This document shows positions 3,059 through 54,344 of a stretch of 64,000 nt of DNA, piece after piece. Each line of letters begins with the position of its first letter. Positions within the stretch are counted from its first letter, which is position 1. The DNA comes from a virus (taxonomy: Duplodnaviria > Caudoviricetes). A model generated the notes under the pieces. That model did no database searches, was not told where the DNA came from, and saw nothing but the letters and a program-made list of their open reading frames with translations. Location of the stretch: the IMG/VR virus record IMGVR_UViG_3300021060_000040, positions 54,227 to 118,226 of that record; one strand, given 5' to 3'. Both the position numbers and the translations under genes were made by a program.

Positions 3059-6589
<3,531 letters not shown>

Positions 6590-6599
6590 CCTGAGAAAC

Positions 6600-6625
6600 A
6601 AGCCCCCGGGCGACTCTGGGGGCTT
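6600..6625 (+). terminator. GC hairpin after nrdJ
   Basis: AAGCCCCCGG...CTGGGGGCTT inverted repeat. Confidence 0.55.
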
Positions 6626-14144: not shown

Positions 14145-14654
14145 ATGAAGATCCCGCCGTCGGTCGCCGACGCTTTCGCGCTCGCCTTCGCCGCCAAACC
14201 GAACCTTGTGGTCACCTCCCCTCCCCCGACGCCGGCGCGACCGATTCCGGGCGAGGTGGTCCGGATGCGCTACGAAAACTGGCGCGGCGAGGTTTCCGTG
14301 CGGACCGTGTTGGTCGAGACGGTCTGGTTCGGCTCCACTGAATGGCACCCACAGAAGCAGTGGATGTTCACGGCGCACGAGCCCAAGACTCGCAAGGAGC
14401 GCGACTTCGCGATCGCCGGCGTGCTCGAGTGGGACTTGCCGGAGAAGCCCGCCAAGGAGCCGCGCTTCTGGATCGTCTGGAATCCGGCGCATCCGACGAC
14501 GCCGACCCTGAAGCACAAGAAAAAGGTGTCGGCCGAGATCGCTGCGAAGAAGCTGTGTCGCAAGCACCCGGACCAGGCCGAGAGCATCTTCGTCATGCAG
14601 GCCACCTCGGCGTGGACGATGGGTGAGGAGCGTCCGAAGGGGCGGCACTTCTGA
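14145..14654 (+). CDS. WYL-like domain protein
   Basis: YENWRGE...R.V....WFGSTEWH...QW...A......RDFAI. Confidence 0.65.
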   Translation: MKIPPSVADAFALAFAAKPNLVVTSPPPTPARPIPGEVVRMRYENWRGEVSVRTVLVETVWFGSTEWHPQKQWMFTAHEPKTRKERDFAIAGVLEWDLPEKPAKEPRFWIVWNPAHPTTPTLKHKKKVSAEIAAKKLCRKHPDQAESIFVMQATSAWTMGEERPKGRHF

Positions 14655-14956: not shown

Positions 14957-15237
14957 ACATCAACCACATCGCCGGCTGCACCAAGATTCTTGGCACGCCA
15001 CCCGATTGGAATCCGAGTGTACCCTGCAAGGGGCTGCCCGTCCGGCATCAGGAGGTCGACGGGATGCAGTGCGTGATCTCGTCCTGGCAGCCGACTGACG
15101 AAGAGCTGTGGCTTCTGGTGGAGGGCTATCCGGTCATCCTCTACGTCGCCGGTAACACCACACCGGCGGTATCTCTCCAAGTCGGAGACCGGTTTGCGCC
15201 TATTCAGGATGAAAAGCCCGATGCCGTCGCCGCGTGA
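14953..15237 (+). CDS. Hypothetical phage protein
   Basis: LG.P.DW....C..LPV...S.W.PT.EE pattern. Confidence 0.65.
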   Translation: MNINHIAGCTKILGTPPDWNPSVPCKGLPVRHQEVDGMQCVISSWQPTDEELWLLVEGYPVILYVAGNTTPAVSLQVGDRFAPIQDEKPDAVAA

Positions 15238-15580
15238 GATCGAGCGCGAGGCTCGCGCCTACTGCGAGAAATTCGGCCTGGATCCGGACGAGGACGTCGG
15301 TGGCTACTTCGACACGGGTGAGGGGCGTGCCGAGTGGACCCGAGCGCCGCGATGGAGCTGGTACAAAGGTGCGAATCTAAGCCAGGACGCCCCACTGACG
15401 GGGTTCCAAAAAGCCATCTTGGAGCAGCAGGCCGCGCGTGACGCTGCGCTCGCTCTGAGCCGGGCTCAGAAACGTGGACAGCCGCCAGCATTCGTTCGGG
15501 TCGACATACCCCTGAACGTTGGTGTTTACCTGGCGCGGATGGTTCCGAGAGAAGCTCTGGAAGGAACCCGGCTCAGCTGA
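15221..15580 (+). CDS. Hypothetical protein
   Basis: Last ORF of the + run; start uncertain. Confidence 0.5.
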   Translation: MPSPREIEREARAYCEKFGLDPDEDVGGYFDTGEGRAEWTRAPRWSWYKGANLSQDAPLTGFQKAILEQQAARDAALALSRAQKRGQPPAFVRVDIPLNVGVYLARMVPREALEGTRLS

Positions 15581-15584
15581 TGCG

Positions 15585-16286
15585 TCAGAAGGCGCTACGA
15601 AGCTCGACTTCGCGGCGCATTCTCCCGAATGCATCTCGCTTCAGCAGCCCGAACCTTTCCCCGTAGTTCTCCATATCTTCTGAATCTGACGTGGGGGGCG
15701 CGAATTGCCCCCGATTCGCAGCAAGGATGAGACCTCGGGCCGCGATCGCCCTCCCCGGCTTCGACAGGCGCATGCTCGCCAGCCACTCCGGCGACACGAT
15801 ACGGATGATGCTCGGGTCGTTGCGTCGGTGTCCTGTCTTGCGCTGCTCGACCGTGATCAAGCCGAGGGCCCGCGCTTCCCGGATCGTGCGCTTCACTGTG
15901 GTCTTCGACACCCCGGCGAGGGCGGCGACTTTCTCATGGCAAAGGCGGCACTCCCCTCCCCGGCTCACCTCTCGGGTGATCACTTGGAGGACAGCGCGCT
16001 CGGCTTGGGTGAACCGGCCAGCTATGGCGGTTGGAATCTCACCTGTGGACGAGAGCTGTCGACGCCTGATCATGCTCTCTGGAGTCCTCGGCCTGGAGCC
16101 GTTTCGAGAGCGGCGAGGCTGCGGTGCGACCCCGACCTGGACGATGTCGCACAGGCCCGACAGCTCGACGTACTGAGCTTCGGTGATGGCCTCGGAGCAG
16201 AAGGCCTGGTTGATCATGGCTCTGAACGTGGGCAGCCGGTCCCGCGGCGCGGCCGCGATGGCGCACCGAATCCCTTGAATATCCAT
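15585..16286 (-). CDS. wHTH DNA-binding protein, candidate replication initiator
   Basis: AERAVL...C.LCHEKVAALAGVSKTTVKRTIREARALGLITVEQR (HTH_36-like); divergent from parA; Rep function inferred from context only. Confidence 0.6.
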   Translation of the reverse strand: MDIQGIRCAIAAAPRDRLPTFRAMINQAFCSEAITEAQYVELSGLCDIVQVGVAPQPRRSRNGSRPRTPESMIRRRQLSSTGEIPTAIAGRFTQAERAVLQVITREVSRGGECRLCHEKVAALAGVSKTTVKRTIREARALGLITVEQRKTGHRRNDPSIIRIVSPEWLASMRLSKPGRAIAARGLILAANRGQFAPPTSDSEDMENYGERFGLLKRDAFGRMRREVELRSAF

Positions 16287-16420
16287 CCTTCGACCCTCTC
16301 GGGCCGTGCAGTCGACAGGCCAGCCGACATCGTTGCGAGAATTGGCGTTCTCGCTTGACATCGCGATGGCTGTCGCTAGGGTGGGGGTGTTGTTGGTCCC
16401 CGCGAAAGCGACTCGAATTC

Positions 16421-16452
16421 GAAGCCCTTCAGGTTGGCGCCTGGGGGGCTTC
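16421..16452. promoter_or_regulatory. Strong hairpin in the leader of the rep-like gene
   Basis: GAAGCCCTTCAGG-TTGGCG-CCTGGGGGGCTTC. Confidence 0.5.
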
Positions 16453-16604
16453 ATTCGTTTCTGGCGCCTGCTACGGCATCGGTTTCTCCTCGGCGGTCCC
16501 TCGAGATCGCGCAGAATCGCTGCTAATCTGGGACTGCATTGCGCACTGACGCACGATTCTTAACCGTCGTCAACTTGCACGCAAACGGAACGCAAACGGA
16601 TCGG

Positions 16605-17572
16605 CGCCCTGTTGGCCCTTCGGTTTTATGCCCTCTTGCCCCGTGATCCCACGGCTCCTAAGGGTCGTGGCACTTGCGGTCCTCAGTCCTTACGGATCAT
16701 AGGGTTGTGGGGCAAAAGGGCCGTTGCCCCGTTGGTTTTTGGGCCGCCGGACCCCCTGACCTTTGGGGTTAGCGGCCATTCGGGCCGAGGGACCATGGCC
16801 CTATCGCCTTGACGGCCGATCGGCCCATAGTGCAAACGGGCGCTCGACCCATAGGTATGGGGGGTCATCGGGCAACGGAAGCGTGGGGCGTTGGGGTTGG
16901 CGGCCTAAGGGCCAACCGATCTAACGGGTCACGGGTCCGTAGCCCAAAGATCTTGTAGGACAACGGGCCCGCTGCCCGGTAGGGTCAGGGTTCTGTAGGC
17001 CCATGGTGCCCAAGGGCTGTGGCCCGCTGGGGTTATGGGGCTCTGGTGCTGTAGGTTCATTGGCCATTGGCCCCTTTGTCCCGCGGGCCTAGCGGTAATT
17101 GGGTCCGAGGGATTGAAGGCCGAGTGGGTTGTTGACCCGTCGGGCCGTAGGCCAGCGAACCCGTAGGGCTAAAGGGCAGCGACCCGTGCGGGTCGAGGGA
17201 ACGGCGGTTTGTTGCCCTAGAGGCCTATGTGCCGCCAGGAGCGTTGGTCTGTAGGGCAATCGGGTGCTGGGCCGATGGCCCGATGGCCCGATGGCCCAAA
17301 AGACCCTTGGCCTTGTAGGGCGATAGGGTAACGGCCCCATCGATCCATCGGACTGTTGCCCGATGGGGCTAAAGGACGGTCGGTTCTTAGGTTTGAGGAT
17401 CTGTTGGAACGTTGGTCCGTAGGCGCGTGGGGCCATGGGAGTGAGGTGCGGAAACCCCGTTGCCCCACTGTCTCGTGGCCCTGTTGGTTTACGGCCCGTT
17501 GGGCTTTTCGGGCTAAAACACCACAACGCCGTTGGGTGTCGGCCCTACGACCACACAACCCACTAGGGCAGG
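16605..17572. repeat. ~121 in-register degenerate 8-bp units (putative parS/ori array)
   Basis: 8-mers counted from 16605 give NG(G/C)NYNN(T) units with no register break, e.g. GGCCCGAT GGCCCGAT GGCCCAAA. Confidence 0.9.
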
Positions 17573-17581
17573 AGGGCAGCG

Positions 17582-18241
17582 GTGCCGGTCATTAGCGTGT
17601 CATCTACGAAGGGCGGGGTCGGCAAAACGACCCTCGTAATCTGCCTCGCCGAGGCCGTGGCCCAGCAGGGCGGCAGCGTTGCCGTCCTGGATGCTGATCC
17701 GAACGGTCACGTCTCCACCTGGTACGATGTCGCGAAGGAAGAGACCGACACGAAGGTGAAGGTCATTCCCGGCGTGACCGAGGCAAACATCCACGACCAT
17801 ATCGACGCCGTCGTAGACGACTATTCCATCGTTCTGATCGATCTGGAGGGCGCTGCATCGCAGATCGTCACCTTCGCGATCGCCCGCAGCGACCTGGTGC
17901 TGATACCGACCAGAAGTTCCGCGATGGACCTGCAGGAGGTGTTCCGGACACACGATCAGGTCCGGCATGCCGAGCGGATGCTGAAGCGGCCGATCAAAGC
18001 CCGTGCCGTCTTCTGCCAGGTGCCTGGCCTAGTAAACAAGGTCCAGTCACACGCCGTCTCCGAGGTTGAGAGGAGGGGGGTGCCGTGCCTGAACGCGCAA
18101 GTGTTGATGCGCCCGGCTGCCTACGCTCAGATCCACTTCACCGGCGTAACCCCGGCACATCCTGAGGGCGATCCCAAGGCGCGACGCGAGATCCACAGCG
18201 TGCTCGAAGAAATTCTCACCATTTTCCGTGAGGATGCGTGA
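17582..18241 (+). CDS. parA: ParA-family Walker ATPase (short type Ib, no N-terminal HTH)
   Basis: KGGVGKTT, LDADPN, VLIDLEG, SDLVLIP; GGAGG RBS. Confidence 0.93.
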   Translation: MPVISVSSTKGGVGKTTLVICLAEAVAQQGGSVAVLDADPNGHVSTWYDVAKEETDTKVKVIPGVTEANIHDHIDAVVDDYSIVLIDLEGAASQIVTFAIARSDLVLIPTRSSAMDLQEVFRTHDQVRHAERMLKRPIKARAVFCQVPGLVNKVQSHAVSEVERRGVPCLNAQVLMRPAAYAQIHFTGVTPAHPEGDPKARREIHSVLEEILTIFREDA

Positions 18242-18741
18242 TGCGTCGCCCGTTCAAACCTGCTCCCGAACCAAAACCCGTGCCCGGGTCCGGCTCCGAG
18301 GAGTCGGCGCCCCGGCCGGCAATGCCTCTCCCTGGTTCTTCGGCACGCCGGGATCCGGAAGCGGAGAAGGAGCTTGTTCGCGCCACGGCCGATCTCGGGT
18401 TCTCCCGGGAAAGCCATGCAGCACGGACTTCGGCGCCGGAGCCGACGCCTCCGACTGAGCCCGTAACGCCGCCGGAACCGGAAGCGGAACCAGACCCCGC
18501 ACCGGCCCGTGCGCCAACGACAGCAAAGCGCGTCGCAAAGAAGCCACTGCCGGCCCCTGTGGTGTCGGAGTCGAGTTGGAGCATCAAGTTCGACGCTGAC
18601 GACACCCTCTATACCGAGCTGCTGCTCGAGTCGCGTAAGCGGCGCGTGACCTTGAAGTACCTGATTCTGGAGATCCTCAAGGCTCAGGGGTATACGGTCG
18701 ACCTCGACAAGGCCCAGCAAGACGGTCGGCGGAACAGGTAG
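18238..18741 (+). CDS. ParA partner, putative centromere-binding protein (RHH-like C-terminus)
   Basis: GTGA-coupled to parA; Pro-rich disordered N-terminus, then strand-helix-helix SIKFD...LYTELL...TLKYLILEILK. Confidence 0.65.
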   Translation: MMRRPFKPAPEPKPVPGSGSEESAPRPAMPLPGSSARRDPEAEKELVRATADLGFSRESHAARTSAPEPTPPTEPVTPPEPEAEPDPAPARAPTTAKRVAKKPLPAPVVSESSWSIKFDADDTLYTELLLESRKRRVTLKYLILEILKAQGYTVDLDKAQQDGRRNR

Positions 18742-18774
18742 GGGAGGGGGGGGCGAAGATCCGAGGACTAGGAC

Positions 18775-19062
18775 ATGGGTAGGCACATAGAGCTCAAAAC
18801 GACTGTCGGCGCTTCAAGTACGTTGATTGATCGGGATATGCTGTTTGTCATGACTGAGACGAATGTCATGGCGGAGCTGCACGAGTTGCTTGACGCCTTG
18901 GAGACTGAGGCTCAGCTGCGCGGTGAGATCCTCGACCGGCTCTCAAAGCGGATCAACGCGATCTCGGAGAGGATTGCGCGTGGGGTTGTCCGCGAAGTCG
19001 ATAATCTACTTGTAGGACGCCCCGAGTTGCCGGGTGCTTACATGTTGCCGGCTCGCGAATAG
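18775..19062 (+). CDS. Hypothetical protein
   Basis: ORF with coiled-coil character; start uncertain. Confidence 0.35.
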   Translation: MGRHIELKTTVGASSTLIDRDMLFVMTETNVMAELHELLDALETEAQLRGEILDRLSKRINAISERIARGVVREVDNLLVGRPELPGAYMLPARE

Positions 19063-19241
19063 CCGCGAGCGTCTCTGTAATAATTCCGACATAGAGCGGC
19101 ATTCTGCACAGGTCAAAAATATCTAAGTGACAACATTGTGCAAGGTCGCCATTTGCGCTTGCAAGCGGAGCGCAAATGCGGCATCCCGGCTCGATAGATC
19201 CGACGGCAGTCCGAGGATCAATCGCCTTCTGCTAGGGAGCA

Positions 19242-19658
19242 GTGGACGTCGCCATGAAATGGTACGCTACAGTTGTATTCCGGTCGGAGGAGTTTGGGTC
19301 TATCGACGTCGAGTTCTTCTTCAACAGTATGGGGGATCTGGAAGATCTAATCAAAAATCACCCGAGCGCAGAGTCCGTTTCGGAAGTGAGGATGATTCCG
19401 GCTGCGATCGCTGAGCTTCCGGACAGGCTGACACCGACACTGGAATCACTTGTTCGCCGCTTGGAGGCAGTTGATGTAATAAAAAATGCGGCGGTTGAAG
19501 GGGCTCGACAGGTCGTCGAACGCTCTAGATATGCCGAGCAACTTGTAGGAGATTATGCACATGGACAACCGCAAGTGTGTCAACTGGTTGGCCTGCTGCA
19601 ACTTTGCAGCCCTCTCTCTACTCCTGGGGATGTCGAACCCTTCGCTCGCGCAAGATAA
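19242..19658 (+). CDS. Hypothetical protein
   Basis: ORF; 3' end overlaps the next ORF. Confidence 0.4.
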   Translation: MDVAMKWYATVVFRSEEFGSIDVEFFFNSMGDLEDLIKNHPSAESVSEVRMIPAAIAELPDRLTPTLESLVRRLEAVDVIKNAAVEGARQVVERSRYAEQLVGDYAHGQPQVCQLVGLLQLCSPLSTPGDVEPFARAR

Positions 19659-53399: not shown

Positions 53400-54344
53400 T
53401 CAGTCCATCCGGTCCGAGGCGACGCTGATCGCGGCGCTGCGCATGAACACGCAGGCTTCTCGGCCGACGATGATGTCGCCATCCGACGGCGAGACGATCC
53501 GGACGTTCTGGACGCCCTCCTGGTAGAGGGCCCCCATCAGCGCGGCGACGGTCATGTCCCGGCCGAGCATCGCCAATCGCGCTCGCAGGGCCGTCAGCGC
53601 CGTCTGGACGCTTGCGAGCACCAGGGACTGGTCCGGCCCCGGATACAGGACCAGGACCGCTTCGAGATCGACGTAACGGACTGTGCAGCCGACCACCGAA
53701 GGGACGTCGGTCAGGGGGCGGATGTTCTTGCGATGAAGCCGTTCGCTGACGGCGGCGATCTGGTCGGCGGTCGCCTCTGGCGTGCTGCCACGGCTCATCA
53801 GGGCGACGCGGACGCCGCCGCGATTGCCGAGCCGCTCCGCTGAGGCGTCGCGCAGCGTGGTCGGCGCGGCCTTGAGGGCGTGGTAGATGTAGGCTCCCTC
53901 GCTGCCCGCCGTCGAGAACGCCTCGGGGGAAAGCTGGACGATCCGGCGAAAGCTGGCGTCGTCGAGCCAGTCGTCGGGGAACTGATCGACGGTCCCGCGC
54001 GGCGTCTCGACGAGAGCGGGGCGGACCTCGCCGTAGAAGGCGGCCAGGACGTCGAGATCCGAGCCCCTGGCGAACGGCAGCATTACGGCCCGGGCGGCCG
54101 CGTTGATGCGGGCCCGGACCATCATCTCGCCGTAGGCTTCGGTCTGGAGAATGACGTTGGTTGGCGACTGCTCGAGCCCGACGGCACGCGAGAGCGCCGG
54201 CATCTTATCGACGACGCGGGCCTGGTAGAGCTTGAGGAGCGACGGATAGTCGATCTCCTCGATTACTTTTGGGGGCGGCAGTCGCGAGAAATCGATGTAG
54301 AGCGACGGGCTCTCGAAATACGACGTGCGATCATAACTGGGCAT
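53400..54344 (-). CDS. Baseplate J-like protein
   Basis: IDFSRLP.P.VIE, A.GSDLD, STAGS.GAY.YHA, RPLTD. Confidence 0.93.
   Translation of the reverse strand: MPSYDRTSYFESPSLYIDFSRLPPPKVIEEIDYPSLLKLYQARVVDKMPALSRAVGLEQSPTNVILQTEAYGEMMVRARINAAARAVMLPFARGSDLDVLAAFYGEVRPALVETPRGTVDQFPDDWLDDASFRRIVQLSPEAFSTAGSEGAYIYHALKAAPTTLRDASAERLGNRGGVRVALMSRGSTPEATADQIAAVSERLHRKNIRPLTDVPSVVGCTVRYVDLEAVLVLYPGPDQSLVLASVQTALTALRARLAMLGRDMTVAALMGALYQEGVQNVRIVSPSDGDIIVGREACVFMRSAAISVASDRMD

Follow-up and report, generated by a model that had tools for sequence, protein, structure and literature searches.

The DNA analysed here, hereafter the window, is a stretch of 64,000 nucleotides (positions 54,227 to 118,226) of IMG/VR virus record IMGVR_UViG_3300021060_000040, from a tailed phage of the class Caudoviricetes. 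It carries a parA gene of the ParF (type Ib) kind, overlapped at its stop codon by the gene of a small partner protein, and on the 5' side of parA a tract of degenerate 8-bp units about a kilobase long. Beyond this tract lie a non-periodic spacer and a divergent gene for a Rep-like protein (Table 1). Our subject is the 8-bp tract, which we propose to be the centromere of the adjoining partition cassette.

Table 1. Features at the rep/par locus, in window coordinates (aa, amino acids; HTH, helix-turn-helix)
Feature	Position	Strand	Remarks
Rep-like winged-HTH protein, 233 aa from ATG 16286	15585..16286	-	PHROG 15967, E 7e-44
Non-periodic spacer between rep and array		16287..16594		75% identity in related phage contig L136; alignable with plasmid pMRAD06
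124-unit array of degenerate octamers, unit nTnGSSYn	16595..17586	+	Proposed centromere and parA operator
parA, 219 aa, GTG start, ParF/type Ib Walker-type ATPase	17582..18241	+	Pfam AAA_31, VirC1, CbiA, ParA; PHROG 164 (ParA-like partition protein)
Candidate centromere-binding protein (CBP), 166 aa	18241..18741	+	Start overlaps parA stop

An earlier, sequence-only reading had described the tract from hand counts as some 121 phased but degenerate octamers, and these counts were reproduced. Read as consecutive 8-mers, 16605-17572 comprises exactly 121 units in a single register; 111 of them have G at position 2, 112 have a pyrimidine at position 5 (C in 85, T in 27), and 69 have T at position 8. 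Just two octamers are found twice. In this interval, the Fourier power at period 8 is 43.0, compared with a mean of 0.74 (standard deviation, 0.42; maximum, 2.4) in 500 shuffles, and a harmonic at period 4 has a power of 21. The peak is as sharp as had been anticipated (the power falls to 1.9 and 2.05 at periods 7.9 and 8.1, respectively), and it is confined to the tract: in 160-bp sliding windows over the 64 kb, period-8 power above 6 is restricted to 16601-17440, and in the whole 118,226-bp record the sole high period-8 tract is 70821-71801 (window 16595-17575). There is no power at periods 16 or 24. Since the period-3 power of 0.39 gives no coding signal, the tract is non-coding, and the open reading frames inside it are short and incidental.

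A position weight matrix combined with a maximal-segment search returned one unbroken in-phase segment, 16595-17586, of 352-373 bits. This extends the array to 124 units and agrees with the earlier statement that no insertion or deletion breaks its register. In this segment, 116 of the 124 units score above 0; units average +3.4 bits in phase versus -1.8 to -7.2 bits in the seven other phases. Elsewhere in the 118-kb record, no further array rose above shuffled expectation. That ordinary repeat finders would miss the array also proved correct: Tandem Repeats Finder saw short pieces only, namely, TGGCCCGA in 3.8 copies (17268-17297) and, at 17134-17199, a repeat of 24 bp that is weak. At its 3' end the array runs into the ribosome-binding site and the GTG start codon of parA at 17582; the sequence-only reading had likewise placed its end at that ribosome-binding site.

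Rephased to nTnGSSYn, the unit consists of a 4-bp box, G-S-S-Y (S, G or C; Y, pyrimidine), and a 4-bp spacer with a preference for a purine and then T. The boxes found most often are GCCC (19), GGGC (18), GGCC (15), and GGGT (13). This description takes the place of the near-palindromic 5-bp GGNCC core that had been suggested before. The two middle box positions co-vary (0.28 bits versus 0.145 bits at the 99th percentile of the null), and a T two bases 5' of the box is preferred with both GG and CC cores. Because the upstream T is preferred regardless of the core, the units are direct repeats. A mixture of boxes in two orientations (GGGC versus GCCC) is likewise ruled out, given that the T is kept with both and that neighbours are uncorrelated. 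Degenerate 4-bp boxes, 4-bp spacers, and direct orientation together make up an architecture of the TP228 parH type.

The units resemble each other in little beyond this plan. After rephasing, 118 of the 124 are distinct and the mean identity between units is 43%. We found no higher-order repeat, as shifts of 1 to 60 units gave no above-chance identity (maximum z, 2.2), and no correlation of box quality or core type between neighbouring units. A 4-unit modulation, which would match one superhelical turn, was looked for and not seen. The sequence-only reading had suggested selection for the avoidance of recombination; this is not supported, and the observation that bears on it is the lack of higher-order repeats. 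Any expansion by duplication must be old, because there is no internal similarity among units; even so, register and boxes are undecayed.

The ATPase encoded next to the array has matches to the Pfam families AAA_31, CbiA, VirC1, and ParA that span residues 1-184 or more. Its closest solved relatives are TP228 ParA/ParF, 5u1g and 4dzz (ParF, 206 aa), matched over the full length at E ~1e-14, and it has no N-terminal HTH domain, as is typical of the small ParA proteins of type Ib. The 166-aa product of the following gene matched no Pfam family at E <= 0.01 and no PHROG, and a search of PDB sequences with a profile of 14 members of its family returned no ribbon-helix-helix (RHH) chain. Together with the proteins encoded next to parA at 13 other loci, it makes up a single family. 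The parts of this family are a conserved N-terminal motif with arginines, PAPRPRPR...DLGFxR, a variable Pro-rich linker, and a conserved C-terminal segment of ~50 residues. In an AlphaFold2 (AF2) model built from eight sequences, the linker is disordered and of low confidence, and two confident helices occupy residues 121-150 or thereabouts (predicted local distance difference test score, ~90).

When this model was compared with representative structures in a VIA-align search, the top matches, over residues ~110-152, were nearly all RHH domains: PutA (Z 4.4), ParG (1p94; Z 4.1), CopA, TacA, NikR, AmrZ, Arc, and omega. The alignments with PutA, CopA, TacA, NikR, Arc, and omega cover 41-43 residues with a root-mean-square deviation (rmsd) of 2.0-2.8 Å, whereas the ParG row is looser (65 residues; rmsd, 7.5 Å). 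Modest Z scores are expected for a domain of ~42 residues. Leads from the ESM Atlas likewise fell in RHH_10, Antitox_RHH, CopG, and ParG clusters, and Foldseek against the PDB gave a single, non-significant row for MatP. By these models, a small RHH protein suited to centromere binding is predicted to be encoded directly after parA, and the cassette is then a type Ib system of the ParF/ParG kind. Membership of the ParG sequence family (PF09274) is ruled out by the lack of a Pfam match at E <= 0.01; in other words, the 166-aa protein is ParG-like in its predicted role and stands outside the ParG family by sequence. Type Ia ParABS systems have a ParB with a ParB_N/HTH domain, CTP-dependent spreading, and a 16-bp palindromic parS. 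This type is ruled out here, as the partner has no ParB_N/HTH match and the site is an array of 8-bp direct repeats.

Seventeen homologous par loci were fetched from plasmids of Methylobacterium, Lichenihabitans, and Caulobacter and from metagenomic plasmid-like contigs; their ParA proteins are 55-61% identical to that of the window. Arrays were scored with a self-trained 8-mer matrix anchored at parA, with 40 random genome positions as a control. At 16 of the 17 loci we found 15-47 in-phase 8-bp units (31-141 bits versus at most 27.8 bits at random positions), and at the remaining one (L223), ~26 units were counted by eye in a register print-out, with a period-8 power of 6.2. The absence of such arrays from homologous par loci had been named beforehand as an outcome that would speak against the centromere proposal. 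The opposite was found, since all 17 loci carry an in-phase array at the same position against the parA start. These arrays end within ~26 bp of that start, except at the weakest locus (L145; 70 bp), and most consist of boxes of the window's class, TTG(G/C)(G/C)C (TTGGGC/TTGCCC).

The plasmid loci, such as those on pMRAD06 (NC_010502), pMaq22A_4p/5p, and CBMB27-p2, thus share with the window a homologous ParA, a CBP of the same family, and an array of this box type set against parA, and differ from it in having 15-47 units versus 124. Plasmid pMRAD06 also has the window's divergent rep-like gene and conserved spacer. The gene upstream of parA varies among the homologues and may be a recombinase, an IS630 transposase, ParDE, MazF, DUF1612, a DnaG-type primase, or a rep-like gene. 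Because of this variation, we conclude that the array travels with the parA-CBP pair and not with rep. The loci are annotated merely as "ParA family protein" and "hypothetical protein", with arrays that are apparently unannotated, and in the literature that we searched, neither RHH centromeres of kilobase scale nor this par family of Methylobacterium were described.

Outside this group, we examined another 76 viral contigs, whose ParA proteins are more distantly related, and none showed a period-8 tract above ~140 bp. A search for such loci with the single ParA had no result among viral contigs; among genome contigs it yielded only three loci, all of them distant. A 400-genome sample of the class of one distant locus, with no match at E <= 1e-35, was uninformative. 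Three of the homologous loci have a second, weaker period-8 signal (power 4.9-5.3) downstream of parA, inside or just past the CBP gene (L001, 3793-3928; L013, 3785-3928; L004, 3745-3856), which may be a second box cluster or an effect of coding sequence. At the metagenomic homologue L137 (4660-5889; 139-kb and 38.9-kb contigs), the 1.2 kb that follow parA contain no called CBP gene, and there is a weak period-8 tract at 5065-5176. Gene calling may have missed the partner, or the locus may have a different organisation.

Viral contigs were also scanned with the degenerate pattern (GNNY N4 / GNNC N4)x5, and the matches listed were mostly simple tandem repeats. The only degenerate array among them is an unrelated one of GTAC boxes in L056 (IMGVR_UViG_3300045988_151554; 95 kb, AT-rich). 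Here, two adjacent arrays, 1499-1660 (~20 units) and 1739-1995 (~32 units), combine GTAC boxes and 4-bp A/T-rich spacers in a strict 8-bp period, and 26 of 29 scored units are distinct.

The closest counterpart of the window in scale is L136, a 29.8-kb contig of a related, syntenic phage. Both have the rep-like gene, the spacer, and parA, and then genes for YAcAr, MT-A70, RlaP, and DUF8224. Within a 1-kb gap ahead of parA, L136 carries 86 octamers in strict register (4256-4943; 210 bits). Their motif differs from that of the window: of 88 octamers, 66 have G at position 7 and 58 have C at position 8, and position 1 is occupied by a purine. The spacer is conserved between the two phages (Table 1). 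The arrays are 48% identical, which is the level of unit-shuffled controls, and the ParA and ParA-adjacent RHH proteins are 52% and 31% identical, respectively. Hence, phase and great length are kept while the sequence of the array is free, as predicted by co-evolution with the binding protein. In a ParA tree, both phage proteins are on long branches, which bears on whether the giant arrays arose independently.

L136 encodes three tandem RHH paralogues after parA (5606-6004, 6001-6291, and 6301-6609). The first combines the ParA-tail motif with a diverged RHH domain, and the second (P0002) is without the tail and has an RHH domain nearly the same as that of the window's CBP. The arrangement suggests, as far as the sequences go, that domains have been shuffled or specificities switched between RHH proteins that serve partition and those that act as regulators.

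Taking these observations together, we consider it likely that the tract serves a type Ib partition system as its centromere and, as a further part of the same prediction, very probably also as its autoregulatory operator. Of the three roles that the sequence-only reading had combined in the tract, that of centromere is supported by the type Ib ParA, the RHH partner, and the 17 loci, and that of operator is plausible because the array covers the promoter and ribosome-binding region of parA; the origin role, discussed below, did not hold up. The repeats overlap the ribosome-binding site and start of parA in the window and likewise adjoin parA in the homologues. The same reading had regarded the locus as its best candidate for an undescribed system. 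We find instead the ParF/ParG/parH architecture of TP228, a 4-bp box and a 4-bp spacer, at larger scale: the components and the box-spacer plan are known (type Ib, TP228-like), and it is the scale and the phage context that are new.

In TP228, 20 degenerate ACTC boxes with 4-bp spacers each bind one ParG dimer and serve as both centromere and operator, and activity drops progressively as boxes are removed (PMC3130281). The window resembles that system in its small Walker ParA, for which TP228 provides the closest solved relative, in a partner predicted to combine a flexible N-terminal tail with an RHH domain, and in a site upstream of parA made up of degenerate 4-bp boxes and 4-bp spacers of 8-bp period, mostly in direct orientation. 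The two differ in several respects. The TP228 boxes are arranged as 12 plus 8, with a short gap between parH and OF, whereas the 124 of the window are unbroken; they are ACTC boxes with AT-rich spacers, in contrast to GC-rich G-S-S-Y boxes with mixed spacers. ParG has 76 aa, the window's partner 166 aa, a long Pro-rich linker, and no detectable ParG sequence match. Finally, TP228 is an enterobacterial resistance plasmid, whereas the window array is on a 118-kb tailed phage.

Two further RHH systems show how such repeats may be read. On pSM19035, the RHH ParB forms a left-handed spiral on nearly straight DNA, and at least four contiguous, gap-free repeats are needed for it to activate ParA (PMC9499535). 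This delta/omega system (2bnw, 1irq) is similar to what we propose for the window in that an RHH ParB occupies contiguous short repeats that double as operators; it has a 7-bp period and several dispersed sites of 7-10 repeats, compared with 8 bp and a single site of ~124 repeats here. The centromere of pCXC100, from an actinobacterial host, consists of nine repeats of 9 bp, which are weakly conserved and recognised chiefly from their period. Like the units of the window, they are unspaced, weakly conserved direct repeats, and their RHH ParB binds successively and cooperatively (PMC3074162).

As the sequence-only reading had supposed, the size of the array is exceptional, with 124 units compared with 15-47 in the homologues and 20 in TP228 (PMC3130281). 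What is new is a box count ~6-fold that of TP228 and 2.6- to 8-fold that of the 17 homologues, an unbroken register, and a second phage example. More generally, the type Ib centromeres studied so far have ~10-20 repeats.

By analogy with these plasmid systems, we infer binding, stoichiometry, filament geometry, operator function, and a benefit of length as follows. Dimers of the 166-aa RHH protein would bind one per G-S-S-Y box, together with the favoured upstream T, every 8 bp. Side-by-side, cooperative binding would allow ~124 dimers to coat ~990 bp (~340 nm) as one continuous filament, in which each dimer would be rotated by about -86 degrees from its neighbour to give a left-handed spiral of ~4.2 dimers per turn. 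The N-terminal tails might then present a dense set of ParA-stimulating peptides to nucleoid-bound ParA-ATP and so drive partition, and the boxes nearest the promoter would repress transcription of parA and the CBP gene. The strict register would be explained by a requirement for gap-free contiguity, as in the pSM19035 precedent (PMC9499535).

Why should the array be so long? Spreading of ParB is CTP-dependent, and no RHH partition protein is known to spread from its sites. For that reason, the size of the partition complex would be written into the DNA, and large phages would have a far longer hard-wired array than do the 14-230-kb plasmids of the same par family. In other words, length may make up for an apparent lack of spreading by RHH partition proteins. 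We put forward more tentatively, as an idea that we would not yet favour, that array length is adaptive and tunable, so that large single-copy replicons hard-wire a complex of the size of a ParB condensate (~124 dimers, ~340 nm). Longer arrays tend to occur on larger replicons or contigs (Spearman rho, 0.61; p, 0.017; n = 15).

Several points weigh against this account. The correlation is only suggestive, as contig sizes are lower bounds and its significance becomes marginal when the window is left out (rho, 0.53; p, 0.052). The RHH assignment rests on a monomer model from eight sequences, in a domain of 42 residues, at Z 4.4; the beta-strand is unformed in that model, and the Pfam, PHROG, and PDB sequence searches came back empty. 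In L136, the three RHH paralogues provide several candidate readers of its array. A scan of 16200-17700 for the sigma-70 consensus found no promoter, and because the parA promoter was not located inside the array, the operator role is drawn by analogy only. Finally, the element may be integrated, given its provirus label and terminal recombinase (see below), and a partition site of this size would be harder to explain in an integrated element.

Possibly, the boxes serve an end other than partition. The ~100 extra boxes, although bound by the RHH protein, could act mainly as a regulatory sponge or an incompatibility device that titrates the repressor or the partition proteins of co-resident plasmids, and would then buffer parA-CBP expression or capture Methylobacterium plasmid proteins without any improvement in partition. 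The nTnGSSYn boxes of the window are indeed of the same class as the TTGGGC/TTGCCC arrays of the plasmids, several plasmids with par loci of this family occur in Methylobacterium strains (M. aquaticum MA-22A has two), and the boxes of TP228 also act as an operator (PMC3130281). However, the giant array of L136 has another motif and would not cross-titrate the common plasmid type, and a register kept strictly over 1 kb is needed by a continuous filament but not by a sink. We regard titration as an unlikely explanation for the size of the array.

A role of the array in replication, as an origin, iteron, or handcuffing field for the Rep-like protein, either alone or in addition to its role as a centromere, would fit with its short distances to the start of the Rep-like gene (310 bp) and to the GC-skew minimum of the genome at 68,474 (2.3 kb). 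Iterons usually are 17-22 bp long and accompany a rep gene. The array, in contrast, has an 8-bp period, a 4-bp core, and no power at 16 or 24 bp, and homologous arrays adjoin parA at loci without a rep-like neighbour, staying with it beside recombinase, insertion sequence, toxin-antitoxin, or primase genes. An iteron-type origin is ruled out on these grounds. In addition, the conserved, non-periodic spacer at 16287-16594 is a better candidate for origin or control DNA than the array, which itself is unconserved. We accordingly think a replication function of the array very improbable.

Neutral growth of a centromere of ~20-40 boxes by replication slippage, with surplus units that have no role, seems to us just as improbable. 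Slippage does occur in the array, as evidenced by the near-identical run of ATGGCCCG x3 at 17268-17297 and the weak 24-bp repeat already mentioned. However, the lack of above-chance shift identity and the diversity of the units place any expansion far back, and neutral DNA would be expected to have decayed since, whereas 116 of 124 units still score as boxes with zero indels and a related phage independently keeps 86 units. Least probable of all is a docking lattice for another protein, be it a host nucleoid-associated protein or a phage regulator, with the proximity of parA incidental: the 166-aa protein is a predicted binder only and the paralogues of L136 complicate the assignment, but the motif changes by locus together with the ParA-adjacent protein, where a host factor would impose one motif, and the 118 kb contain no further arrays above chance, unlike the case for a global regulator.

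The preferred reading, a centromere read by the ParA-adjacent RHH protein, has to be seen in the context of the replicon. Among the proteins encoded by the 118-kb record are a class II ribonucleotide reductase, a thymidylate synthase, a collagen-like fibre protein, and a tape-measure protein that includes a tail lysozyme domain. IMG/VR classifies the record as a provirus, 97% complete. At its extreme left end (G000 355-894) lies a tyrosine recombinase (PF00589, 50 bits), a candidate integrase, dimer-resolution enzyme, or other recombinase. The Rep-like protein has, besides the match listed in Table 1, weak matches to the replication-initiation PHROGs 4617, 270, and 391 and to HTH Pfam families, and its homologues adjoin parA on Methylobacterium plasmids. 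It is a probable plasmid-type replication initiator, judging from these matches; with respect to the partition system, it is a neighbour of the array with a putative place at most.

The spacer between the Rep-like gene and the array is probably replication-control or origin DNA outside the array. On the + strand, within 16355-16462, it contains a promoter-like TTGACA-N17-TAGGGT and then a hairpin with a 14-bp stem and a T-run (16421-16452). This element, which runs antisense to the leader of the gene for the Rep-like protein, is reminiscent of the counter-transcript RNA (ctRNA) by which plasmids control their copy number. It is kept in L136 (3985-4098) and can be aligned with pMRAD06 (L015, about 2500-2620); its fold z-scores are -2.3 in the window and -3.1 in L136. 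Rfam gave no match in 15000-19500. Directly 5' of the array, at 16579-16600, are two direct repeats of ACGCAAACGGA, partly kept in L136 at about 4213-4236 (CGCAAACGC...GCAAACGA), which could be sites for Rep or a host factor at the edge of the origin/control region.

The cumulative GC skew of the record is V-shaped, with its global minimum at window position 14,248, ~1.3 kb past the 3' end of the rep gene, and genes on both arms of the skew are oriented toward the region of the minimum. Skew and gene orientation would both fit a long history of bidirectional replication that starts in the rep/par module. Together, the Rep-like gene, the promoter-terminator element, the par cassette, and the GC skew point to plasmid-type maintenance.

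If array length is indeed adaptive, selection would bear on little else than the phase and three base positions in each unit. The sequence could then drift, or switch specificity along with its protein, as between the two phages, and cutting the array to 20-40 boxes or breaking its phase would destabilise the element. The par family offers a natural length series, with 15-47 boxes on plasmids and 86 and 124 on two phages, and this makes it possible to test how the size of an RHH complex is set and whether it scales with the size or copy number of the cargo. A continuous RHH filament of 124 dimers, if formed, would be a good object for atomic force microscopy or cryo-electron microscopy. From a methodological point of view, kilobase-scale functional repeat arrays can escape standard repeat finders, as this one did, and be found by Fourier and phase analysis. 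Finally, the occurrence of a complete plasmid-style rep/par module in a large alphaproteobacterial (Methylobacterium-type) tailed phage bears on the biology of phage-plasmids.

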